The translations under genes and the position numbers were made by a program. From Flavobacteriales bacterium (lineage in GTDB: Bacteria; Bacteroidota; Bacteroidia; Flavobacteriales_F; PHOS-HE28): a stretch of 64,000 nucleotides of DNA. Shown here in pieces: positions 3,236 through 51,255 of this stretch; within the stretch, counting starts at the first letter, position 1, and each line of letters starts with the position of its first letter. The stretch is from assembly GCA_044224725.1 (NCBI GenBank), contig JBGAJW010000008.1, positions 26,136-90,135 of the forward strand. Direction: 5' to 3'. The notes below the pieces were generated by a model, which worked only from the letters and a program-made list of their open reading frames with translations, searched no databases and was not told the DNA's origin.

Positions 3236-4261
3236 ATGTCCCGTGTCCGCTCGCTCCTGTTCTTGGTCCTCCGCCGAAGCCTTGGCATAGGCGGACTATT
3301 GCCATTGATCGCCGCTTCGCCGCTGTGGGCGCAAGTGGCCAACGCGGACTGCTCCAACGCGGCCACCCTCTGTGCGGATGCGCCCATCGCCGGCAACAAC
3401 ACCGGCGCGAACATCTGGCCGGGCTTCTGCACCACACCGGCCACGGCGAACGTGGTGTGGTTCACCTTCACCACCAACAGCCAGGGCGGCACGGTGGATG
3501 TGGACATCAGCGGCATTACCTGCCCGCCGCAAGTGGGCATGGACAATGAGCTGAGCGCCGTGGTCTTCAGCGGCGATGGCAACTGCACCCCGAACGCCTT
3601 CGTGTCCGTGGGGGATTGCCAGCACGACTCGCTGGACTTCACCCTGACCACCAACACCCTGCTGCCGAACACGCAATACTGGGTGGTGGTCGCGGGCGTC
3701 ATCGACAACGGCTCCACCATCGCCGCGCAATGCGACTTCACCATCGGCACCTCCGGCCCGGGCGCTGATATCGTGGGCGTGGACTTCTCCGCGGGCCCGG
3801 ATGTAACGCTGACCCAAGGTGGCAGCACACAGTTGCTCGCCACAGGCGGAACCACCTATGACTGGTCGCCCTTGTCGGGCCTCAGCGGCAACGGCATCGC
3901 CGATCCCTTCGCGCAGCCGGAAGAGAGCACGCTGTACACCGTGAGCACGGTGATCAACGGATGCACCTACACGGACGATGTCTTCATCGAGGTGAACCGC
4001 CCGATCTCGCCGCCCAACACCATCACCCCGAACGGCGATGGCATCAACGATACCTGGGACCTCTTCGGCATACAGGACTACCCGCAGGCCACCGTGAGCA
4101 TCTACGACCGCTGGGGCCAGCGCGTGTTCAACAGCGTGGGCTACAAGACGCCCTTCGACGGCAAAGGCCTGCCCACGGCCACCTACTACTGGATCATCCA
4201 GCTCAGCCAGTTGGACGGCGTGTCCGAGCCCTACACCGGTTTCCTCACGATCGTGAACTGA
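3236..4261 (+). CDS. Secreted protein with T9SS type B C-terminal domain (gliding-motility-associated CTD)
   Basis: Signal peptide ending LWA|Q; C-terminal PNTITPNGDGINDTW...IYDRWGQRVF...GFLTIVN; followed by porP. Confidence 0.88.
   Translation: MSRVRSLLFLVLRRSLGIGGLLPLIAASPLWAQVANADCSNAATLCADAPIAGNNTGANIWPGFCTTPATANVVWFTFTTNSQGGTVDVDISGITCPPQVGMDNELSAVVFSGDGNCTPNAFVSVGDCQHDSLDFTLTTNTLLPNTQYWVVVAGVIDNGSTIAAQCDFTIGTSGPGADIVGVDFSAGPDVTLTQGGSTQLLATGGTTYDWSPLSGLSGNGIADPFAQPEESTLYTVSTVINGCTYTDDVFIEVNRPISPPNTITPNGDGINDTWDLFGIQDYPQATVSIYDRWGQRVFNSVGYKTPFDGKGLPTATYYWIIQLSQLDGVSEPYTGFLTIVN
3266..3296 (+). repeat. 31-bp palindromic element in coding sequence, copy 1
   Basis: GTCCTCCGCCGAAGCCTTGGCATAGGCGGAC, encoding VLRRSLGIGG. 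Confidence 0.92.
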
Positions 4262-5256
4262 TGCGCGCACGCTTCCTGCTCCTGGTCCTCCGCCGAAGCC
4301 TTGGCATAGGCGGACCCCCGCGCCTGCCCCTGGCCCTACTCCTGCTCCTGCCCCTGGCCCCCGCGCGCGCCCAGCAGATCGCCCAATACACCCAGTACGT
4401 CTTCAACCAGTTCAGCGTGAACCCGGCGGTGGCGGGCAGCAAGGATTGTTTGGACGTACGCCTCGGCTTCCGCAAGCAATGGGTGGGTTTCCCCGGTGCG
4501 CCCACCACGGGCTGGGCCAGCTTGCACGGCGCCATCCGTGCCAAGGGAAAGCCCTTCGTGAAGAGCCGCCACGGCATAGGTGCGTTCATCGAAAGCGATG
4601 ATGCCGGGGTGATCGGCTACACGCACTTCTACCTGGCCTACGCCTACCACGTGGAAATGGCGAAGGACTATTACATGAGCATGGGCCTCTTCGCGGGCGT
4701 GAAGCAACAGAAGCTCGACCTGGGCGAGGTGAACGCGGTGAACCCGAACGATCCCCTGCTCGCCAGCGACGGCAGCGTGATCGTGTACCCCATGGTCTGG
4801 CCGGGCATCTGGTTGTACAGCAAGAACGGCTGGGCCGGCCTTTCCATGAACCAGGTGCTGGGCAACAAGGTGAAGGACATGGGCGAGAACACGCGCCTCA
4901 CCCGCCACTTCCTCGCCAGTGCCGGTCGGCGCTTCCGCCTCAACCGCACGCTGGCCGTGGTGCCCAGCACCATGTTGAAGCTCTCCCCGAAGTCGCCCCT
5001 CGCCATGGACCTCAACGTGTCCATCGAATACCGTCGCAAGCTCGGCCTCGGTATCTCCTACCGCAACCAGGACGCCGTCGCCTTCATGGTGAAGATCCCC
5101 TTCCTGAAGTACTTCACCCTCGGCTACAGCTATGACGTCACCACCAGCCGGCTCCGGAAGGCCAGCAGCAACACGCACGAAGTGATCCTCGCGATCTACC
5201 CGTGCGGCAACAACGACCCGGCCAAGAACATCGTGCGATGCCCCGTTTTCGAATGA
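4261..5256 (+). CDS. PorP/SprF family T9SS outer-membrane protein
   Basis: QQIAQYTQY...NPAVAG...RKQWVGFPGAPTT...GYSYD...THEV; ATG overlaps the upstream TGA. Confidence 0.92.
   Translation: MRARFLLLVLRRSLGIGGPPRLPLALLLLLPLAPARAQQIAQYTQYVFNQFSVNPAVAGSKDCLDVRLGFRKQWVGFPGAPTTGWASLHGAIRAKGKPFVKSRHGIGAFIESDDAGVIGYTHFYLAYAYHVEMAKDYYMSMGLFAGVKQQKLDLGEVNAVNPNDPLLASDGSVIVYPMVWPGIWLYSKNGWAGLSMNQVLGNKVKDMGENTRLTRHFLASAGRRFRLNRTLAVVPSTMLKLSPKSPLAMDLNVSIEYRRKLGLGISYRNQDAVAFMVKIPFLKYFTLGYSYDVTTSRLRKASSNTHEVILAIYPCGNNDPAKNIVRCPVFE
4285..4315 (+). repeat. 31-bp palindromic element in coding sequence, copy 2
   Basis: Identical to 3266-3296. Confidence 0.92.
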
Positions 5257-8200
5257 AGAAACAACGACCCCTCCACACCGCGGCGCTCCTCCTCCTGGTC
5301 CTCCGCCGCAGCCTCGGCATAGGCGGACTCCTGCTCTTCACGATGGCCGCCACCGCGCAAGACACCAAGTACTGGGTGGGCGGCAGCGGGGACTGGAGCG
5401 ATGCCGCGCACTGGGCGCTCAGTTCCCACGGTGCCGGTGGTGCCGGGGCACCGCGCGCGTCGGAGAGCGCTTGGATCATCGGCCAGGGCGACCGTACCGT
5501 ACATATCGACGGGAACGTCCGCTGCATGGACCTGGTCATCGATGCCACGCACGGCGCATTGGTCATCGATGGCCCCGCTTCGGCGAAACTGGAACTGGGC
5601 GGTGGTTTGCGTGCGGACGGCAACGTGGATTGGACCTTCCCCGGCGACATCGAATTCACCAACGACCACGGCGGAACGATCCAACTTTCCCCGCATGGCA
5701 TCGGTATCGCGAGCAACATCATCCTGAACGGCTCGGCGATCTGGGAGATGAGCAGTGCGCTCGTGCTCCGCGACAATGCCTCGCTCACGCTGAAGAAAGG
5801 AACGCTCCGGCTCTTCGATGGTGTGCTGCAGGCCGGTTCACTCCGCACCGAGGGCCGCGCACGCAAGCGCATCGAGGCGGGCAGCGCGTACGTGATCCTG
5901 GGCGCGTTGGACATCGATACGGAACGCACCGCGGTGGATGGGGGCAGTACCCTGCTCCTCGTGAACGGGCAGATCTCCGCGTGGGACGGTTCCATCCGTG
6001 ACGCCGAAGAATTCCGCGGCATCACCAATTGCGCTACGGGCGCGGGCCAAACGCCCTTCCAGGTGAACGCCTTCGTGACCACCAACTACAACGGCTTCGG
6101 TGTCACCTGCAACGGTGCCTGCAACGGTGCGGTGAACGTGACCGTCACCGGCGGCACGGGCAACTTCTCCATCCAATGGCAAGGCGGGCCCGGCGGTTCC
6201 GGTACTTCCCTGCCCTGGACGAACCTGTGCGCGGGGAACAAGCTGGTGATCGTGACCGATCTCGGCCAGAACGTCGGCTGCTTCGCCAACGCGCTGATCA
6301 CCCCGCCACCACCGCTGGGCGTGCTCTTCTTCGGCCTGAACCCGCCTACCTGCGCGGATGTATGCAACGGAACGGCCGTGACCTTCCCCGGTGGTGGCGC
6401 GGGCAGCGGCTACACCTACAACTGGAACAACAACACCGAGAACACCTCCAACCCCTCGCAGCTCTGCGCCGGCGTGAACACCTTGCAATTGCGGGATGCC
6501 AACAACTGCGTTTTCGATACCTCCTTCACCATCGACCTCCTGCCGGTGGCCGCCGTGCTCACCTTCACCGATGCCACCTGCTCGGGCGATTGTGACGGTA
6601 CGGCACATGTGGATGTGAGCGGGGGCACACCGAACTACACCTTCAACTGGGAACCGGGCTCACCCACCGGGGACGGCACGGCTGATGTCACCGGTCTCTG
6701 CCCCGGCGCTTACACGGTGCTCGTGGCCGATGCGAACAACTGTGATACCACGATCGCCTTCACCATCATCGCGCCGCCACCGATCGTGCCGAACCTCGTG
6801 TTCACCGATGCTACCTGCTTCACCAGTTGCGATGGCACCGCGAACGTGAACCCCACCGGAGCGGCCGGTCCGTTCTCCTTTGATTGGGCCCCGAACCCCG
6901 TGACCGGGGATGGCACCAACAGCGTGACCGGTCTGTGCTCCGGTGATTACACCGTGCTCATCACCGACCTGGCCACGGGATGCGATACGCTCGTTCCCTT
7001 CACCATCGGCTCCGCTCCGGCCATTGATGTGCAACTCACGGTAACGGACGCTACCTGCTCCGGGAATTGCGATGGTACGGCGGACATCGTCGTCAGCGGG
7101 GGAACACCCGGCTACACCATCCTCTGGGCTCCCGGCATCATCACGGGCCAAGGCACCCCCAACGCCACGCAACTCTGCCCCGGCGATTACACCGTGACCG
7201 TTACCGATGCCGCGGGCTGCGACACGACGTTGCAGTTCACCATCGCGCAGCCTCCGCCCATCCTGCCCAACGAGACCTTCACCGATGTGCGCTGCTTCGG
7301 CCAGTGCAACGGCACCATCGATCTGGCACCTACCGGCGGAACGGGAACCTACACCTATGTGTGGGCGCCGCCCCCGCCCGTGGGTGATGGCACCGCTTCC
7401 GCTTCCGCGCTCTGCGCGCAGGACTGGAGCATCACCGTAAGCGACGCGCTCGGTTGCGATACCACCGTCACCATCACCATCAGTGAACCACCCCAGTTGG
7501 CGGTAACGCCTTCGCAAACGAACATCAGTTGCGGCAGCAATTGCGACGGCACGGCCAGCGTGAACGTTTCCGGAGGTACGCCGGGCTACACCTATGACTG
7601 GTCCGGTTCCCCCGTGGGAGACGGCACGAACGCCGTGACGGACCTCTGTGCGGGCGTGTACACGGTACAGGTGCTGGACAGCGCTTTGTGCGAGGTGATC
7701 CAGACCTTCATCATCCAGGAGCCTTTGCCTATCGTGGTGGACGTGGCCACGGTGAACGCGACCTGCCCGAACTTCTGCAATGGAACGGCGGACGCGACGG
7801 TGACGGGCGGCAACGATCCGTACACCTATGTATGGTCGCCTGCTCCGGGCAGCGGCCAGAACACCCCGAACGTGACGGGTCTCTGCGCGCAGGATTATTC
7901 CCTCACGGTCACCGACTCGGTGAGCTGTGATACCACGATCACCTTCACCATCAGCGCCCCACTGCCGATCGATCCGCAGGATTCGGTAACGAACGTGACC
8001 TGCTTCGGCGCGTGCGATGGCAGCATCATCCTGGACCCGATCGGCGGCTTCGGCAACTTCACCTACACCTGGACGCCCCAGCCGCCCAACGGCCAAGGCA
8101 CGAACCAGGCGTTGAACCTCTGCGCGGGAACCTGGTCGGTCCTCATCGCCGACGGCGTCTGCGACACCACACTCGTTTTCGACATCACGGAGCCGGCACC

Positions 8201-11200
8201 ACTGGATGCGGGATTGGTGACCACGCCCGCCGGTTGTGACGGGGCCTGCGATGGCACGGCCACCAGCTCGGCCAGCGGCGGAACACCCGGCTACACCTAT
8301 GTATGGAGCCCTGCGCCCGGGGCCGGGCAAGGCACACCGGCAGCCACGCAACTATGCCCCGGCAACTACACGCTCACCATCACCGATGCGGCGGGGTGCG
8401 ACACGGTCATCGCCTTCACCATCACCACACCTCCGCCGATCATCCCGACCATTACCACCACGCTCGCCAGTTGCGGCGGCATCTGCGACGGCTCGGCCAC
8501 GGTCGGTTTCTCGGGCGGGTCGGGAACCATCGGCATCGTGTGGTCTCCTGAGCCGCAGACCGGGCAGGGCACCACCACGGCAACGGGATTCTGCGCCGGT
8601 GTCGGCAGCGTTACCCTCACGGACAGCATCGGTTGTGATACCACCGTGCAGTTCATCATCAACACCCCGAGCGGCATAGTCGCTGTGCCCACCATCGCTG
8701 ACGCTTCCTGCGCGGACCTCTGTGATGGTACCATCGATCTCTCGGTCACAGGCGGTGTGCCCGGCTACGACTTCACGTGGACGCCCGTGCCACCGATCGG
8801 TGCGGACTCCATCGTGGGCGGTTTGTGCGCGGGACAGTACACTGTGCAGATCGGCGATCAGGCCGGTTGCGATACCACCTTGGTCATCGACATCGGTGCC
8901 CCGGCCCCCATCCTGCCCAACGGCAGCTTCACCAATGAGACCTGCAACGGCCCCTGCGATGGTACTGCCAGCGTGAACCCCTCCGGCGGTTCAGGCAACT
9001 ATGCGTTCGCTTGGTCCCCAACGCCGGGAACGGATGACGGCAACGGCAACGTGACCGGCCTTTGCGCGGGTGATTGGAGCGTCACCATCACCGATGCCAG
9101 CGGATGCGACACGACATGGACCTTCACGGTCCTACCGGAACAACCCATCACGCCGAATCTGAGCTTGACGCATGCGACATGCTTCAACATCTGTGATGGC
9201 ACGGCGCACGTGTCCCCCACTGGCGGATCCGGTGGCTTCACCTATGCATGGAGCCCGAACCCGCCCGTCGGCCAAGGCACGGATTCCGTAAGCGGCCTCT
9301 GCCTGGGGCAATGGAGTGTAACGATCACCGATTCCGTGGGCTGCGATACCACGGTGAGCTTCATCATCTTCAAGCCTTCGCCGGTAACACCGAGCCTGGC
9401 CTTCGTGGCGGCGGATTGCACCGGGCCGTGCACGGGCGAAGCAGCGGCATTCCCTTCCGGCGGTACGCCCGGTTATGACTTCTTCTGGCAGCCCGCGCCC
9501 GGATCTGGCCAAGGCACCTTCTTCGTGGACGGATTGTGCGCCGGGACCACCTACTCGCTCACCGTCACGGATTCACTCGGTTGCGATACCACCGAATCGT
9601 TCACCATCCCGGACTTCACGCCCATCTCCCCGAACCTCGGTACAACTCCCGTTACCTGCGCGGGCGGTTGCGATGGTACCGCCACCCTCGGACCCACGGG
9701 CGGGGAGGGTCCTTACACCTTTGATTGGACGCCCGATCCCCCGGGCGGCGACGGTACGAACAGCGCCACCGGCCTATGCGCGGGGACCTATGACGTGACC
9801 ATCGCCGATGCCAACAGCTGCGACACCACGGTGAGCATCCTCATCACCTCGCCGCTCCCGATCGATCCTGCCCCCACGGTAACTCCCATCGCCTGCAACG
9901 GCGATTGCAACGGCGCCATCGGCCTGGCAACGACCGGTGGTACCGGCAACCTCGCGTACGCCTGGAGCCCTCAACCGCCCGTGGGGCAAGGCACCGCGAA
10001 CGTGGCCCAGCTCTGCCCCGGTGATTGGACGGTGACCATCTCGGATGACGCCGGATGCGACACCACATTGACCTTCACGCTCACCGATCCGCCCGTGCTC
10101 AGCACGCAGGCGGAAGTGGTGCAGAGCCAATGCCAGGCCTGCAACGGCGCGGTAACGCTGCATGCCACGGGCGGCGGTGGCGGCTACTTCTTCGCTTGGG
10201 GCCCGCCGATCAATGTGACCACGAGCGATTCGGTGCAGACCAACCTCTGCGCGGGCATCTACACCGTGATCGTCGGCGATGCGCTCGGCTGTGTTACGCA
10301 GATCGCGGTACCTGTCAGCGACAGCGATGGCGAGGATCTCACCATCACCAACGATACGGTGACCTGTCCCGCCGATTGCGACGGTACAGTGAGCGTGGAT
10401 TTCAACTGCTCGCTGCCCAACTGCACGATCGCCTGGTTCGATGGCTTGGGCACCAACCTGAACGCCAGCACGCCCTCCCTCAACGGTCTGTGCGCAGGTC
10501 TCTACCTGGTGCAGGTGACCAATGGCAATGGCTGCCAGCGCATCGATTCCGCGCTGGTCGTAGCGCCTGAGCCGATCGTCGCCCTCTTCGGCACCACACC
10601 GGTGAGCTGTGCCGGTTCGTGCGATGGGACAGCGACCGTCGGCATCTCCGGCGGTGTTGGACCCTACTCTGTATCATGGAGCCCGCAGCCGGGTGCCGGC
10701 CAGGGCACACCGAACGTCAGCGGCCTCTGCGCAGGAACCTATGATGTGACCATCACCGACAACAGCGGATGTTCCATTGTACAGAGCGTGCTCATCCTAG
10801 GACCGGCTCCCATCGATGCGAACGCCACCGTGCAGGACATCTCCTGCGCCGGTGCGTGTGATGTAAGCATTGTTCTCAATGCCCAAGGTGGTACCGGTAC
10901 GTTCACCTACCTCTGGAACCCGGCCCCCCCGAACGGCCAAGGAGGATCAAGTGCGACACAGCTCTGCGCGGGTGCCTACGGTGTGACCATCATCGATGCG
11001 AACGGCTGCGATACCACGCTCTCGTTCACGATCACGGAACCGCAGCCGCTGATATTGACGCCTTCTTCCACGCCCGCACACTGCCAGGTGTGCGATGGCA
11101 CGGGTGCGGTGCTGGTCTCCGGGGGAAGCGGTGCTCCGACGATCACCTGGTCGGATGCGGACGGAAACGTTGTCGGTACGGGACCTGCTCTTGTGGACCT

Positions 11201-14200
11201 GTGCGCGGGTATCTACACGGTGAACGTGCAGGACGCGAACGGGTGCTCCGCGCAGACCGTGGTGGTGATCAGTGATGCTACGGGTGAAACGCTGACCGTT
11301 GCGGATGGGCAGACCACCTGTTCGAACAATTGCGACGGCTCCGTCTCCGTGACCTTCACCTGCACGGATGGCCCATGCACGATCACCTGGTTCGACCAGA
11401 CCGGCCAGCAACTCGCGCAGAACTTTTTCGCGTTGGACAGCCTGTGCGTCGGTGACTACTATGTGCAGGTGGTGAACAACGCCGGTTGCACCGTGATCGA
11501 TACCGCCACCGTATCACCCTCGCAGCTATTGATCCCGAACCTCAGCACCACGCCGGTCACCTGTAACGGTGACTGCAATGGCACTGCGACCGTTGGCCCG
11601 ACGGGCGGCGTCGGACCATACACCTATGACTGGGCGCCCGATCCGGTCACCGGGGATGGAACACCGTCCGTGAGCGGCCTTTGTCCCGGCGTCTACACCC
11701 TGTTATTGGGCGATGCCAGCGGGTGCGATACCACGATCAACGTACTCATCACGGAGCCTTCACCGATCTCGGTCAATGGCCAGGTATCGGGTGTTTCCTG
11801 CAACGCGGCCTGCGATGGCGCTATCTCGCTCTCCGCGGTCGGCGGGTCCGGCGGCTTGTCGTTCACGTGGGATCCCACACCGCCGGTCGGGCAGGGCACC
11901 AGCGACGTGTCCGTTCTCTGCGCAGGGGATTGGACGGTGACGATCAGCGACAGCCTTGGTTGCGATACGGCCGTCACGTTCACCATCACGGAACCGCAAC
12001 CATTGACGGTCGCAACGACCAGCACCCTCAGCACCTGCGGCATATGCTCCGGCACCATGAGCGCGACGCCTTCTGGCGGAACGGCAGGATACTTCTACAG
12101 TTGGACGCAGAACGGTTCCATCTTCGGAACGGACAGCGCGTTGACCGATGTATGCGCCGGTCTCTATGAAGTGACCGTGACGGACGCGAACGGTTGCCAG
12201 GCGCAACAGACAGTGCCCGTGAGCGACAGCGACGGCGAAGTGCTCAACGCGACGAGCGATATCGTCACGTGCCCGGGTATCTGTGATGGTTCTGTCTCTG
12301 TCGCTTTCAATTGCTCTGCGCCCGGCTGCTCGATCACTTGGCTCGATGCCTTGGGGAACGACCTGGGGGAGACGGGCAACACGCTGGACACCCTCTGCCC
12401 CGGTACCTACTTCGTGCAGGTGATCAATGGGAACGGATGTCTCACCATCGATACCGCACTGGTCACGGAGCCGCAACCCATCCTGCCGAACCTCGGCACC
12501 ACGCAGCCCACCTGCGCGGGCGAATGCGACGGCACGGCGACGGTGGGCCCGACGGGCGGTGTAGGTCCGTACTCCTATGATTGGTCGCCTGACACGATCG
12601 CGGGGGACAGTACGAGCAGTGTGACCGGGCTGTGCGCGGGCAACTACGCGCTGCTCATCACGGACTCGGTCGGCTGCACGGCGAACGTCGATGTGCTCAT
12701 CATCTCGCCACTGCCCATTACGGCCAACGCGGCGATCACGGGGATCACCTGCAACGGCGCATGCGACGCGAGCATCAGTTTGGACGCTGCCGGTGGCACA
12801 GGACAATTGGCTTTCCTCTGGGCGCCCGATCCAGGCCCTGGTCAAGGCACGGACAGCGTCTTCGCGCTTTGTGCGGGCGACTGGAGCGTGACCATCTCGG
12901 ATGCCAACGGCTGCGACACGACCTATACGTTCAGCATCACCGATCCGCCGGTGCTGGTCGTCGATGTGAGCACGACGGACAACGTGTGCTTCGGCGATTG
13001 TGCCGGTGTTGCCACGGCGACCATATCCGGGGGTACCGCACCCTATGCGCTGTCTTGGACGACCTCGGATGGTACACCCATCGCCCAAGGGGATACGGCC
13101 ATCAGCGGCCTCTGCGCGGGTGACTATATCCTGCAGGTCGCCGATACGAACGGTTGCGTGTTGCCCACACCGTTCACCATCGGCGAGGGCGTGGCATTGC
13201 AAGCCGCACTGGCGTTCACCGGCGAAACGTGCAACGGACCCTGCGATGGCATCGCTTCCGTGGTGCCGGGCGGTGGTGCAGGAGGATATTCCATCACATG
13301 GACCGGTCCCGACGGTAGTGTTTTCGCTACGGACACCACGGATATCAGCGGCCTCTGCGCAGGCAACTGGAGCGTGACCATCATGGACTCCCTTGGATGT
13401 GACAGCGTATTCAACTTCACATTGCTGCCTTACACACCGATCGCGCCGAACGAGCAGGTATCGCAGGTCACCTGCAATGCCGCATGCGATGGGTCCGTGA
13501 CACTCGCGGCCACCGGCGGCATCGGTACGCTCTCGTTCACATGGACCCCGACGCCTCCGAACGTGGACACCAACGGTTCCGCGACGGGACTTTGCCCGGG
13601 TGATTGGAGCGTTACCATCACCGACGGTGTGGATTGCGACACAACGCTCAGCTTCACCATCACCGAGCCTCCGGCCATCACCATCGCGGTGGATACACTG
13701 GTGAACGCGAGCTGCAATACCGCATCTGACGGAGCGATCAGCACCACCATCGGGGGAGGCACACCCGGTCTGGACATTTCTTGGAGCGGACCGAACGGTT
13801 TCTCCGCGAACACCGACGACATCAGCGGGCTCGTTCCAGGGGACTATGCGGTGAACGTGCAGGACGCCAATGGTTGCAGCCTGCAGCAGACAGTGACCGT
13901 CGGTGCGCTCAGCACGGTGCTCGCGGAGGCGGGAAGCGATGTGACACAGTGCTTCGGCGCGTCGCTCATCCTGAACGGGGCTTCCAGCCAAGGTGCCGTG
14001 GACTATCTCTGGACGGATCCCCAAGGCACCACATTGGGCACGCAGCCCTTGCTGGACCTCGGCGTGCTGCAACCTGGAGCTTACACGTACATCCTCACGG
14101 TCACCGACACTCCATGCTCCGATGATGACACGGTCTTCGTGAACGTCCTGGCGCTGCCTTTCGCGGATGCGGGACCGGACCGTGACATCTTCGTGGATGG

Positions 14201-14663
14201 CACAGTGACGCTCGGTGGACAACCGAGCGGGCCGCCCGGAAGCACGTTCCAATGGTCGCCGGATTCGCTGGTCAGTGATGGATCGCTGGCGAACCCGATC
14301 ACGTCGCCAACGGAGACGACCTGGTTCATCCTCAGCGTCACAACGCCGAGCGGCTGCACCAGCTTGGATTCTACGCTCGTCACGGTAGTGCCCGAGATCA
14401 TCATCCCGTCGGGCTTCACTCCGAACGGGGACGGGTCGAACGAGACGTGGCAGATCGATTTCATCGACCGTTTCCCGGATTGTACCGTGGAGATCTACAA
14501 CCGCTGGGGCGAGCAGCTCTTCCGGAGCGTGGGTTACGGGGTGCCGTGGGACGGCAGGTACAGCGGCGGTCTGGTACCGGTCGGTACGTATTACTACGCC
14601 ATCGAGCTGAACGACGAACGATTCCCCGAACCCTACACCGGCCCGCTCACCGTGATCCGCTGA
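5253..14663 (+). CDS. Giant SprB-repeat adhesin with T9SS type B CTD (~3136 aa)
   Basis: Tens of ~80-aa repeats (TCxGxCDGTAxVxxxGGTxxYTYxW...GLCAGxYxVTITDAxGCDTT); N-terminal YWVGGSGDWSDAAHW; C-terminal PSGFTPNGDGSNETW...NRWGE...GPLTVIR. Confidence 0.9.
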   Translation: MKKQRPLHTAALLLLVLRRSLGIGGLLLFTMAATAQDTKYWVGGSGDWSDAAHWALSSHGAGGAGAPRASESAWIIGQGDRTVHIDGNVRCMDLVIDATHGALVIDGPASAKLELGGGLRADGNVDWTFPGDIEFTNDHGGTIQLSPHGIGIASNIILNGSAIWEMSSALVLRDNASLTLKKGTLRLFDGVLQAGSLRTEGRARKRIEAGSAYVILGALDIDTERTAVDGGSTLLLVNGQISAWDGSIRDAEEFRGITNCATGAGQTPFQVNAFVTTNYNGFGVTCNGACNGAVNVTVTGGTGNFSIQWQGGPGGSGTSLPWTNLCAGNKLVIVTDLGQNVGCFANALITPPPPLGVLFFGLNPPTCADVCNGTAVTFPGGGAGSGYTYNWNNNTENTSNPSQLCAGVNTLQLRDANNCVFDTSFTIDLLPVAAVLTFTDATCSGDCDGTAHVDVSGGTPNYTFNWEPGSPTGDGTADVTGLCPGAYTVLVADANNCDTTIAFTIIAPPPIVPNLVFTDATCFTSCDGTANVNPTGAAGPFSFDWAPNPVTGDGTNSVTGLCSGDYTVLITDLATGCDTLVPFTIGSAPAIDVQLTVTDATCSGNCDGTADIVVSGGTPGYTILWAPGIITGQGTPNATQLCPGDYTVTVTDAAGCDTTLQFTIAQPPPILPNETFTDVRCFGQCNGTIDLAPTGGTGTYTYVWAPPPPVGDGTASASALCAQDWSITVSDALGCDTTVTITISEPPQLAVTPSQTNISCGSNCDGTASVNVSGGTPGYTYDWSGSPVGDGTNAVTDLCAGVYTVQVLDSALCEVIQTFIIQEPLPIVVDVATVNATCPNFCNGTADATVTGGNDPYTYVWSPAPGSGQNTPNVTGLCAQDYSLTVTDSVSCDTTITFTISAPLPIDPQDSVTNVTCFGACDGSIILDPIGGFGNFTYTWTPQPPNGQGTNQALNLCAGTWSVLIADGVCDTTLVFDITEPAPLDAGLVTTPAGCDGACDGTATSSASGGTPGYTYVWSPAPGAGQGTPAATQLCPGNYTLTITDAAGCDTVIAFTITTPPPIIPTITTTLASCGGICDGSATVGFSGGSGTIGIVWSPEPQTGQGTTTATGFCAGVGSVTLTDSIGCDTTVQFIINTPSGIVAVPTIADASCADLCDGTIDLSVTGGVPGYDFTWTPVPPIGADSIVGGLCAGQYTVQIGDQAGCDTTLVIDIGAPAPILPNGSFTNETCNGPCDGTASVNPSGGSGNYAFAWSPTPGTDDGNGNVTGLCAGDWSVTITDASGCDTTWTFTVLPEQPITPNLSLTHATCFNICDGTAHVSPTGGSGGFTYAWSPNPPVGQGTDSVSGLCLGQWSVTITDSVGCDTTVSFIIFKPSPVTPSLAFVAADCTGPCTGEAAAFPSGGTPGYDFFWQPAPGSGQGTFFVDGLCAGTTYSLTVTDSLGCDTTESFTIPDFTPISPNLGTTPVTCAGGCDGTATLGPTGGEGPYTFDWTPDPPGGDGTNSATGLCAGTYDVTIADANSCDTTVSILITSPLPIDPAPTVTPIACNGDCNGAIGLATTGGTGNLAYAWSPQPPVGQGTANVAQLCPGDWTVTISDDAGCDTTLTFTLTDPPVLSTQAEVVQSQCQACNGAVTLHATGGGGGYFFAWGPPINVTTSDSVQTNLCAGIYTVIVGDALGCVTQIAVPVSDSDGEDLTITNDTVTCPADCDGTVSVDFNCSLPNCTIAWFDGLGTNLNASTPSLNGLCAGLYLVQVTNGNGCQRIDSALVVAPEPIVALFGTTPVSCAGSCDGTATVGISGGVGPYSVSWSPQPGAGQGTPNVSGLCAGTYDVTITDNSGCSIVQSVLILGPAPIDANATVQDISCAGACDVSIVLNAQGGTGTFTYLWNPAPPNGQGGSSATQLCAGAYGVTIIDANGCDTTLSFTITEPQPLILTPSSTPAHCQVCDGTGAVLVSGGSGAPTITWSDADGNVVGTGPALVDLCAGIYTVNVQDANGCSAQTVVVISDATGETLTVADGQTTCSNNCDGSVSVTFTCTDGPCTITWFDQTGQQLAQNFFALDSLCVGDYYVQVVNNAGCTVIDTATVSPSQLLIPNLSTTPVTCNGDCNGTATVGPTGGVGPYTYDWAPDPVTGDGTPSVSGLCPGVYTLLLGDASGCDTTINVLITEPSPISVNGQVSGVSCNAACDGAISLSAVGGSGGLSFTWDPTPPVGQGTSDVSVLCAGDWTVTISDSLGCDTAVTFTITEPQPLTVATTSTLSTCGICSGTMSATPSGGTAGYFYSWTQNGSIFGTDSALTDVCAGLYEVTVTDANGCQAQQTVPVSDSDGEVLNATSDIVTCPGICDGSVSVAFNCSAPGCSITWLDALGNDLGETGNTLDTLCPGTYFVQVINGNGCLTIDTALVTEPQPILPNLGTTQPTCAGECDGTATVGPTGGVGPYSYDWSPDTIAGDSTSSVTGLCAGNYALLITDSVGCTANVDVLIISPLPITANAAITGITCNGACDASISLDAAGGTGQLAFLWAPDPGPGQGTDSVFALCAGDWSVTISDANGCDTTYTFSITDPPVLVVDVSTTDNVCFGDCAGVATATISGGTAPYALSWTTSDGTPIAQGDTAISGLCAGDYILQVADTNGCVLPTPFTIGEGVALQAALAFTGETCNGPCDGIASVVPGGGAGGYSITWTGPDGSVFATDTTDISGLCAGNWSVTIMDSLGCDSVFNFTLLPYTPIAPNEQVSQVTCNAACDGSVTLAATGGIGTLSFTWTPTPPNVDTNGSATGLCPGDWSVTITDGVDCDTTLSFTITEPPAITIAVDTLVNASCNTASDGAISTTIGGGTPGLDISWSGPNGFSANTDDISGLVPGDYAVNVQDANGCSLQQTVTVGALSTVLAEAGSDVTQCFGASLILNGASSQGAVDYLWTDPQGTTLGTQPLLDLGVLQPGAYTYILTVTDTPCSDDDTVFVNVLALPFADAGPDRDIFVDGTVTLGGQPSGPPGSTFQWSPDSLVSDGSLANPITSPTETTWFILSVTTPSGCTSLDSTLVTVVPEIIIPSGFTPNGDGSNETWQIDFIDRFPDCTVEIYNRWGEQLFRSVGYGVPWDGRYSGGLVPVGTYYYAIELNDERFPEPYTGPLTVIR
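5298..5328 (+). repeat. 31-bp palindromic element in coding sequence, copy 3
   Basis: GTCCTCCGCCGCAGCCTCGGCATAGGCGGAC; two substitutions, both synonymous. Confidence 0.9.
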
Positions 14664-14667
14664 ACCC

Positions 14668-15621
14668 ATGAACACGCAACGCTTCCCCTTCTTCCTCTGC
14701 GCGGTGCTGCTCACCGGCCTGTCATGGGCGCAACAACTGCCGCAGCTCAGCCAGTACAACAGCCATGACTACCTGTATTGCCCCGCGGTGGCGGGCAGCA
14801 GGCCATGGTTCGAGATGCGCAGCGCCCACCGCAACCAGTGGGTGGGCATACAGGACGCTCCGCGAACCTTCATGCTCAGCGCCACCACGCCCATGGGCAG
14901 CAACATGGGTGTCGGAGGGTTCCTCTACACGGATCACGTCGGACCCACCCGCAGAACAGGTGCTCAAGTGAGCTATGCCTACCACCTGAGCCTCACGGAC
15001 AAGATCCGTTTGGGCATGGGCCTCTCGATCGGACTGCAACAGTTCCTGATCGATGGGTCGAAGATCACCTTCCACGACAACTTCGATCCCGTGATGGACA
15101 ACCAGCTGCGGGGAAGCACGGTGCCGGATGCGAGCTTCTCCCTGTATCTGTATCACGAGCGCTGGTGGGTCGGGGCCATGGCACCGCAGCTGTTGGAAAG
15201 CAAGATCTGGTTCTATGATGACGCCGACCAGACGCTCAGCACCCTCGCACGGCACTACTATGCGATGGGTGGGTATCGTTTGCCCTTGGGGGATGACTTC
15301 CGCTTGGAGCCTTCCTTTCTTGTGAAGTACGTGAGCCCGGTGCCCGCCAAGATCGACCTCACAGCCACCCTTCGCTACAAGGACCAGATCTGGTTGGGGG
15401 CCACCTACCGCACCAACGACGCGATCGCTGTAATGCTCGGATACTGGATGAAGAAGACCTTCCAGTTCGGGTACAGCTATGACATCACGACCACCAATCT
15501 GAACCGGTACAGCAACGGCACGCACGAGGTGATGCTGGCGATCACCTTCGGGAAGAAGCCGCCGGAGAAAGCACCGGAAGTAACGACCCCGGCTCCGGCC
15601 GCTGCACCGGTCGCGCCGTAG
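14668..15621 (+). CDS. PorP/SprF family T9SS outer-membrane protein
   Basis: QQLPQLSQY...PAVAG...RNQWVGIQDAPRT...GYSYDITT...GTHEV. Confidence 0.92.
   Translation: MNTQRFPFFLCAVLLTGLSWAQQLPQLSQYNSHDYLYCPAVAGSRPWFEMRSAHRNQWVGIQDAPRTFMLSATTPMGSNMGVGGFLYTDHVGPTRRTGAQVSYAYHLSLTDKIRLGMGLSIGLQQFLIDGSKITFHDNFDPVMDNQLRGSTVPDASFSLYLYHERWWVGAMAPQLLESKIWFYDDADQTLSTLARHYYAMGGYRLPLGDDFRLEPSFLVKYVSPVPAKIDLTATLRYKDQIWLGATYRTNDAIAVMLGYWMKKTFQFGYSYDITTTNLNRYSNGTHEVMLAITFGKKPPEKAPEVTTPAPAAAPVAP

Positions 15622-49718: not shown

Positions 49719-51255
<1,537 letters not shown>

Follow-up and report, generated by a model that had tools for sequence, protein, structure and literature searches.

Palindromic repeats in the signal peptides of three consecutive type IX secretion genes as probable copies of a very small REP-like mobile hairpin

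A 64,000-nucleotide (nt) stretch of DNA from an uncultured sludge Flavobacteriales bacterium (the window; contig JBGAJW010000008.1, positions 26,136–90,135, of GenBank assembly GCA_044224725.1) carries the same palindromic repeat near the beginning of three consecutive genes related to the type IX secretion system (T9SS). We concluded that the three repeats are insertions into existing signal peptides, and that they are probably copies of a very small mobile hairpin, similar to the repetitive extragenic palindromic (REP) elements, that is tolerated in cleaved signal peptides. An earlier note, made from the sequence of the window, had proposed either a mobile palindrome sheltering in such peptides or a co-opted hairpin or peptide tag. 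The first of these is favoured by the empty sites, the dispersed family and the clean in-frame insertions elsewhere that are described below. Genomes, loci and public sequencing runs are denoted by G-, L- and X-numbers, respectively, G000 being the window's own genome. Comparisons within the genus used 99 other genomes (congeners), and the public runs provided contigs only, with thin RNA cover.

Results

The repeats are in-frame insertions into three adjacent genes

The 31-mer GTCCTCCGCCGAAGCCTTGGCATAGGCGGAC occurs exactly at positions 3266–3296 and 4285–4315 of the window and with two mismatches at 5298–5328, and it was absent from all of 100 dinucleotide shuffles of the window. The three host genes are on the forward strand. 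Gene 1 (3236–4261) encodes a secreted CHU_C (T9SS C-terminal sorting) protein (Pfam PF13585, E 2.2e-22), gene 2 (4261–5256) a PorP/SprF outer-membrane protein (PF11751, E 1.5e-68), and gene 3 (5253–14663) a giant adhesin with SprB repeats (PF13573, E 5.3e-64, first 1000 residues). The start of gene 2 overlaps the stop of gene 1 (TGATG), and that of gene 3 overlaps the stop of gene 2 (ATGA). Relative to the start codons (ATG at 3236, 4261 and 5253), the copies begin 30, 24 and 45 nt further on; each is in frame and encodes VLRRSLGIGG. Copy 3 differs by CGA>CGC and CTT>CTC, of which one is located in the internal and the other in the apical loop, and both changes are synonymous. The 31-mer search and the Pfam assignments therefore agree with the earlier note on the presence of the repeat in three consecutive T9SS-related genes; its statements that the copies lie in one frame 24–45 nt past the start codon, and that the changes in copy 3 are synonymous and unpaired, were also correct.

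The inserted unit is not quite the 31-bp palindrome that had been described: the repeat is real, and the gaps in alignments with relatives give a unit of 30–33 nt. The closest comparison was with L095 and L096, two metagenome relatives having a PorP 92% identical to that of the window. Nucleotide alignment against L096 left gaps of 33, 33 and ~30 nt between alignable flanks. Copy 1 of the unit (3263–3295, forward strand) consists of TTG, GTCC and a 26-nt hairpin with stems at 3270–3275 and 3290–3295 (forward strand), reads L-VLRRSLGIGG within the gene 1 signal peptide, and coincides with the 33-nt gap against the 87%-identical L096. Copy 2 (4282–4314, forward strand), in the PorP/SprF signal peptide, is composed of CTG, GTCC and the hairpin and also fills a 33-nt gap against L096. 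Copy 3 (5295–5327, forward strand), in the signal peptide of the adhesin and with the two synonymous differences, adds ~30 nt relative to L095/L096 and to the congener G075.

Orthologues of gene 1 are present in 61/61 genus genomes, and 24 same-genus loci outside G000 were fetched for comparison of the N-termini. The insert is absent at all three N-termini in each of these 24 loci, where the orthologues have ordinary signal peptides of ~20–25 residues. It is likewise absent in all the 13 best metagenome relatives, L095/L096 included, that were examined among the 80 loci retained from the scan. All three sites are thus empty in every relative examined. The three repeats are insertions into existing signal peptides and, judged from these alignments, they appear to postdate the split from relatives with ~92% identical PorP.

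The copies are also part of the translated genes. The residues preceding the insert (MSRVRS.., MRAR.. and MKKQRP..) match the N-termini of the orthologues, the TGATG and ATGA overlaps are identical in the 92% relative L096, and in gene 2 the stretch from the element to mature PorP contains no possible start codon (ATG, GTG or TTG); together these indicate that the element is translated. The Pfam PorP match starts at residue 36 in gene 2, whereas in the locus's second PorP, at 14668, it starts at residue 21; this fits an N-terminus that is ~10–15 residues overlong. It might be argued that the real start codons lie downstream, leaving the elements as hairpins in untranslated leaders or between cistrons, as most copies of the family are situated just outside coding regions beside start codons, and past the element there is an in-frame TTG at 3 nt in gene 1 and an ATG at 15 nt in gene 3. 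These later starts would leave genes 1 and 3 with no charged n-region or no signal peptide, and gene 2 offers none at all, so that we regard downstream starts, which the earlier note had named as one way in which it could be wrong, as very improbable. Still more remote, to the point of being negligible, is an assembly artefact caused by a repeated k-mer. Contigs of independent runs do break at the 31-mer; such unitig breaks are, however, the expected effect of a repeated 31-mer, and copies 1 and 3 are each crossed, with unique sequence on either side, by contigs from other studies (X16 and X12, respectively). The reading frames of all three genes are open, and at least 92% of the sampled words of the three-copy allele were found in 14 DNA runs from sludge, wastewater or bioreactors, which shows that the allele is stable in nature. 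The empty allele was not seen in the public-run contigs.

Signal peptides that contain the insert

The insert splits each signal peptide with an RR pair, after which there remains, in the three genes, a hydrophobic stretch whose best 9-residue window averages 2.2–3.0 on the Kyte-Doolittle scale. RR could serve as the charged n-region, and SLGIGG together with the old downstream part could form the hydrophobic core of a Sec signal, so that the insert-bearing signal peptides would be expected to work. As the signal would be cleaved on export, the mature proteins would be unaltered; a unit of 30–33 nt would keep the reading frame and, being stop-free in most frames, would let the genes survive. 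Tat signals have the motif S/T-R-R-x-F-L-K ahead of the hydrophobic core. This motif is not matched by the three peptides, in which the sequence is LRRSLGIG and a hydrophobic run precedes it. PorP is an outer-membrane barrel, for which Sec export is expected.

These genes provide a dated and clean case of the absorption of selfish DNA, since the sites are empty in a relative with 92% PorP identity. Such inserts lengthen signal peptides and may therefore mislead predictors of start codons and of signal peptides.

A family of small hairpins in the genome

The three copies belong to a dispersed family in G000. Its core of 26 nt has a 6-bp lower stem, a 3x3 GNA/GAA internal loop, an upper stem of 2–4 bp and a small loop, and is preceded by a short 5' tail. 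Along the strand, the lower stem, which ends in CC/GG, is followed by G(A/T/C)A, an upper stem starting with GC, the small loop, GC, G(N)A and the lower stem again. This structural pattern matched 46 copies in G000, against 2 when the genome was reversed. With a covariance model derived from 23 G000 copies, 81 hits were obtained in G000 at E < 10, many of them new and 8 of them on the 101-kb contig of the window, and we estimate the total at ~50 copies.

Both stems show compensated variants, TCCGCC/GGCGGA, AACGCC/GGCGTT, CCCGCC/GGCGGG and TTCGCC/GGCGAA in the lower stem and GCTC-GTA-GAGC and GCGC-ACAA-GCGC in the upper one. In a strand-neutral set of 49 the stem cells comprise 158 Watson-Crick, 30 G.T and 8 A.C pairs; an earlier version of the pairing statistic was partly circular, because part of its set had been picked for pairing. 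The strand with GAAGC..GCGAA folds better than its complement in 39/48 copies (−13.45 versus −11.17 kcal/mol). Folding of 51-nt segments around the three window copies gave −15.7 to −17.9 kcal/mol, with z of −0.9 to −1.3, not better than shuffles. An alternative fold, GCCTT-GGCG-AAGGC or CGCCGA-AGCC-TTGGCG, gained no support from the variable upper stems. Rfam covariance models gave no match overlapping a copy, either in the window (E up to 1) or in ten copy-bearing loci (E up to 5).

Most copies in G000 are outside genes. In 25/48 copies an opposite-strand gene has its start codon within 13 nt of the 5' side, and in 23 of these within 6 nt, the typical arrangement being CAT-GCTTTG-stem; same-strand copies lie 3–44 nt ahead of starts. 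The tails in G000 are GCTTTG, GGTTC and TGGTCC. In 10 of the 25 cases a Bacteroidetes-type −7 box, TAnnTT(T/C)G, is found 8–55 nt further upstream (0.009 expected per 80 nt), indicating that these copies sit in short leaders. We considered a regulon and rejected it, as the 25 host genes, judged by their N-termini, look like unrelated and presumably housekeeping genes.

Besides the three copies, one clear family copy is present in the window. It is intergenic, at 49843–49880 on the forward strand (ATCCGTC GAAGCCTTGGCGAA GGCGGAT; G000:C116:75978–76015), with a same-strand ATG ~24 nt downstream. As it is the only other clear copy, the following genes of the T9SS locus do not have the element, in agreement with the earlier note.

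The hairpin upstream of valS was seen in G000, G016 and G073. A conserved leader at valS was rejected, since at least 25 of 30 genus loci have no hairpin there; in these the −7 box is just 7–17 nt before the ATG. Over the valS upstream regions as a whole (L065–L094) this spacing holds for most species, which makes the mRNA near leaderless, and immediately upstream of valS a number of species show 7-nt units repeated in tandem. G000 itself has two valS regions (G000:C125 and G000:C22), with DNA 89–94% identical and protein 99% identical over the first 120 residues, whose homology stops exactly at the valS ATG. Probably the G000 bin mixes two related organisms, or the valS region is duplicated.

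Copies were also observed at tRNA genes. One (L041:139–176; G000:C7:57983–58020) exactly fills the spacer of two tRNA genes on their strand, and another, at L036, is 15 nt ahead of a tRNA gene.

In-frame insertions elsewhere in the genus

Family members have entered other genes in frame. A SufS-like gene of the congener G006 has a 33-nt in-frame insert encoding FAFAKASAERG at a site that is empty in G000 (GAC|AAG), the two proteins having 86% amino-acid identity, and no target duplication was seen at this filled/empty pair. In G017, two genes have SA[F/S]AKASAD in Lys-rich linkers, one of which corresponds to a 9-residue gap against G000. A fourth signal-peptide copy was found in G000 itself, 15 kb upstream of the window (G000:C116:11502–11539), in a lipoprotein of 526 residues (P0001). 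Its N-terminus reads MFRKR[PSTAAALAKAV]TLSLVALLFVIGC, against MLRKLSTLSLVALLFV (MLRKLSTLSLV..) in the G005 orthologue, and the insert is absent in 14/14 orthologues. Two further G000 copies extend the N-terminus of a protein that we take to be Gmd-like and the C-terminus of another protein.

The model had 1–11 hits in 56 of the 99 congeners. Among the 20 best hits in other genomes of the genus, 7 are coding, 7 adjoin a start codon and the remaining 6 are intergenic; six of the seven coding ones are in the frame SA[F/S]AKASA and one is in PAEASAKAG. The frames observed are Ala-rich ones and, in signal peptides, RRSLG-I-GG; Pro, Arg or Trp frames were not seen in any clear coding copy. The lipoprotein copy is read in another frame (TAAALAKAV) than the three window copies. 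The earlier note had suggested a test for enrichment in signal peptides and in one reading frame; a frame bias is present, only two or three of the six frames being used. Such selfish DNA survives in signal peptides that are cleaved, in disordered linkers and at protein ends.

Outside the genus, an opposite-orientation copy in L262 (Vicinamibacterales) encodes PAFAKATAG at the signal-peptide end of a TonB-receptor-like protein. Long open frames were also counted crudely in the various phyla, but we did not retain the count as a frame statistic: it is too noisy in GC-rich genomes, and the persuasive examples are individual AT-rich ones only.

Occurrence in distant phyla

Exact 24-mers of the hairpin were searched across phyla with one genome per species; the rough chance expectation for such 24-mers in random sequence is well below one hit. 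The ATA form of the loop, which is that of the window copies, was present in 38 stretches from Patescibacteria, Acidobacteriota, Alphaproteobacteria, Chloroflexota, Planctomycetota, Verrucomicrobiota, Bacteroidota and others, and the GAA form in at least 120 stretches from many phyla, cultured Bradyrhizobium included; near-identical copies are thus known from more than 150 stretches. An initial idea that ATA was a local Glu-to-Ile adaptation was dropped, because ATA is a cross-phylum subtype.

Over 163 copies the 5' tag is C in 66%, Y in 83%, T in 62% and G in 77%. After this CYTG tag, in the same 163 copies, a Y pairs with an R beyond the stem; these flanks were outside the search pattern, yet they are conserved. 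Five genomes of different phyla or classes have 9–27 model hits each, a Patescibacteria genome of 1 Mb having 17. Back-to-back inverted pairs also occur.

In Bradyrhizobium and another alphaproteobacterium (L302, L318 and L287) the hairpin is nested in a REP of the CGTC type (GTCATTGCGAGCG..), which indicates that it inserts into other repeats too.

The core sequence, its complement and the encoded peptides were not found in the searched literature, although the figures and supplements of one survey of REPs (PMC3733652) might list the hairpin. That a 26-nt core and its CYTG tag recur, with no gene linked to them, in phyla so far apart makes the mobilising mechanism a testable question.

Discussion

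How the copies may have spread and been mobilised

The three window copies have the ATA loop form and a tail of their own, YTG-GTCC. Neither feature occurs in any other G000 copy or in 40 relatives. One founder with local spread is therefore most likely. The founder could have spread over 1–2 kb either through re-insertion at short range or through ectopic conversion among the signal sequences, which are rich in Leu codons. As for mobilisation, a hairpin with an adjacent tetranucleotide is the type of substrate on which HUH-type single-strand DNA endonucleases could act. CTTG may be linked to IS91/phiX174-type nick sites. It is present in the empty SufS site, and the flanks in the window are CTTG, CCTG and CCTG.

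Several observations weigh against a mobile hairpin. No cognate enzyme was found. G000 has four Y1 transposase hits, none of which is bracketed by the hairpin, and the best of them is flanked by a different palindrome, GACCCCGAAGGGGTC. In five other carrier genomes there is no Y1 gene within 5 kb of the hairpin, and a carrier genome with 27 hairpins gave zero Y1 hits. Clustering of the 1134 open reading frames within 800 nt of 118 loci revealed no recurrent neighbour protein family, the largest being shared by 4 loci. The insertion boundaries and the target motif are ambiguous, with no visible target duplication. The presence of one rare subtype in three adjacent genes is hard to obtain by random transposition and requires local copying. 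Finally, the PorP orthologues of G075, L097 and L105 contain different, larger palindromes in frame after codon 5–6, with no alternative start after them; that of G075 (L010:2468–2700) is ~140 nt long, and 230 nt there fold at −108.8 kcal/mol. The 5' junction of PorP could be an insertion hot spot, or else a hairpin could be of use there and under selection.

Two candidate partners were accordingly rejected: a Y1 transposase of the REP-associated (RAYT) kind, which is not adjacent in G000 or in the five other genomes, and small GIY-YIG nucleases as a recurring neighbour, the largest neighbour family spanning 4/118 loci. At the RAYT-like Y1 gene locus of G000 (L054; G000:C123), copies of the GACCCCGAAGGGGTC palindrome are at 1339–1451 and 1995–2060. 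Collections of plasmids and phages gave no match below E 0.1.

Alternative explanations

A variant of the mobile-hairpin explanation holds that a single insertion was followed by purely homologous or ectopic gene conversion, with no further transposition. The YTG-GTCC tail and ATA loop common to the three copies, their spacing of 1 kb and the similar upstream runs of Leu codons (CTCCTG, TTCTTG) are consistent with it. The downstream flanks are, however, unrelated, so that the homology would be one-sided; the occurrence of the ATA subtype in other phyla permits a lost or external master copy; and the family inserts on its own elsewhere, as in the SufS-like gene and the P0001 lipoprotein. We consider conversion alone possible, but rather doubtful.

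Co-option is clearly less likely still. It would have the sense hairpin act in the operon mRNA, by processing, stabilising or pausing the ribosome at each cistron start, or VLRRSLGIGG tune T9SS targeting. Its main argument is the independent, larger palindromes at the same PorP gene junction in three other lineages. In addition, the peptide is identical in three copies with both differences of copy 3 synonymous, the better-folding strand is the transcribed one here, unlike in most gene-associated copies, and same-strand copies are found between and ahead of tRNA genes; an RNA-library contig spans copy 1, which is weak evidence, as DNA carry-over is possible. On the other side, the insert is absent in 37/37 related loci examined, the 92% relative included, other T9SS genes of the locus do not have the element, the fold energies are ordinary against shuffles, and two substitutions are too few for measuring selection. 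In one sludge population (run X12), moreover, copy 3 has G>A at 5311, which changes Ser to Asn and breaks the upper stem as well, and this argues against tight constraint. The proposal of a co-opted hairpin or peptide tag in the earlier note thus found no positive support, the feature being species-specific and the X12 variant breaking the stem. An equally improbable extension is that the hairpin, near letter-for-letter from Patescibacteria to Acidobacteriota, is a structure-constrained nucleic-acid module, defined by its GNA/GAA internal loop, covarying stems and CYTG tag, and recognised by a widespread host or mobile enzyme, the sense copies in T9SS cistrons and between tRNA genes being active RNA or single-stranded DNA sites that shape operon expression. 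If true, this would place it among the smallest self-propagating units known, codon-neutral by length. A small mobile hairpin tolerated in cleaved signal peptides remains the explanation that we prefer.

Comparison with known systems

The superfamilies of REPs tagged by GTAG or CGTC were surveyed by Di Nocera, De Gregorio and Rocco (2013, PMC3733652). Like the REPs described there, the hairpin is a dispersed stem-loop in the 20–40-bp range with an unpaired tetranucleotide at one end; it has subfamilies, compensated stems, frequent G.T pairs and occurrence in many phyla, and some copies are intragenic, many of those N-terminal. It also resembles the CGTC type, as described there, in lacking a linked transposase. 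It differs in its tag, which is CYTG and not GTAG or CGTC, in its conserved GNA/GAA internal loop, in its low copy number (~50 in G000) and in a core that is kept nearly letter-for-letter across phyla. REPs are placed there mainly downstream of genes, between convergent or co-directional open reading frames, whereas most G000 hairpins are just upstream of start codons; and, unlike in the GTAG type of that text, no RAYT (Y1) gene is flanked by the hairpin. The 'GCGG/CCGC type loops' that the survey mentions for Bradyrhizobium REPs may be the hairpin nested in another REP.

Rickettsia palindromic elements (RPEs) were described by Ogata et al. (2000), as cited by Delihas (2007, PMC2229807), who gives RPE-1 as ~100–150 bp and Rickettsia-specific. 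As in that account, a palindromic element is inserted in frame and conserved protein genes are left intact. By its figures, the hairpin, of 30–33 nt, present in Flavobacteriales and many phyla and mostly outside genes, is a different element. The parallel with RPEs drawn by the earlier note is therefore apt for the in-frame behaviour, and does not extend to membership, given the size and the hosts.

The same source describes the Yersinia miniature inverted-repeat transposable element (MITE) YPAL/RU-2, which measures 168 bp, has terminal inverted repeats, is accompanied by a target duplication and contributes to a predicted signal peptide at locus YPO1552. The likeness to this described case is a small mobile palindromic repeat translated within a signal peptide; the difference is that YPAL/RU-2 is there reported to create a new gene, whereas the hairpin interrupts existing signal peptides. 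Unlike MITEs, the hairpin has no target duplication at the SufS pair, and it is shorter than any listed MITE. Without the tags of the REP superfamilies and their link to a transposase, and far smaller than RPEs or MITEs, the hairpin nevertheless behaves as intragenic REPs and Rickettsia palindromic elements do.

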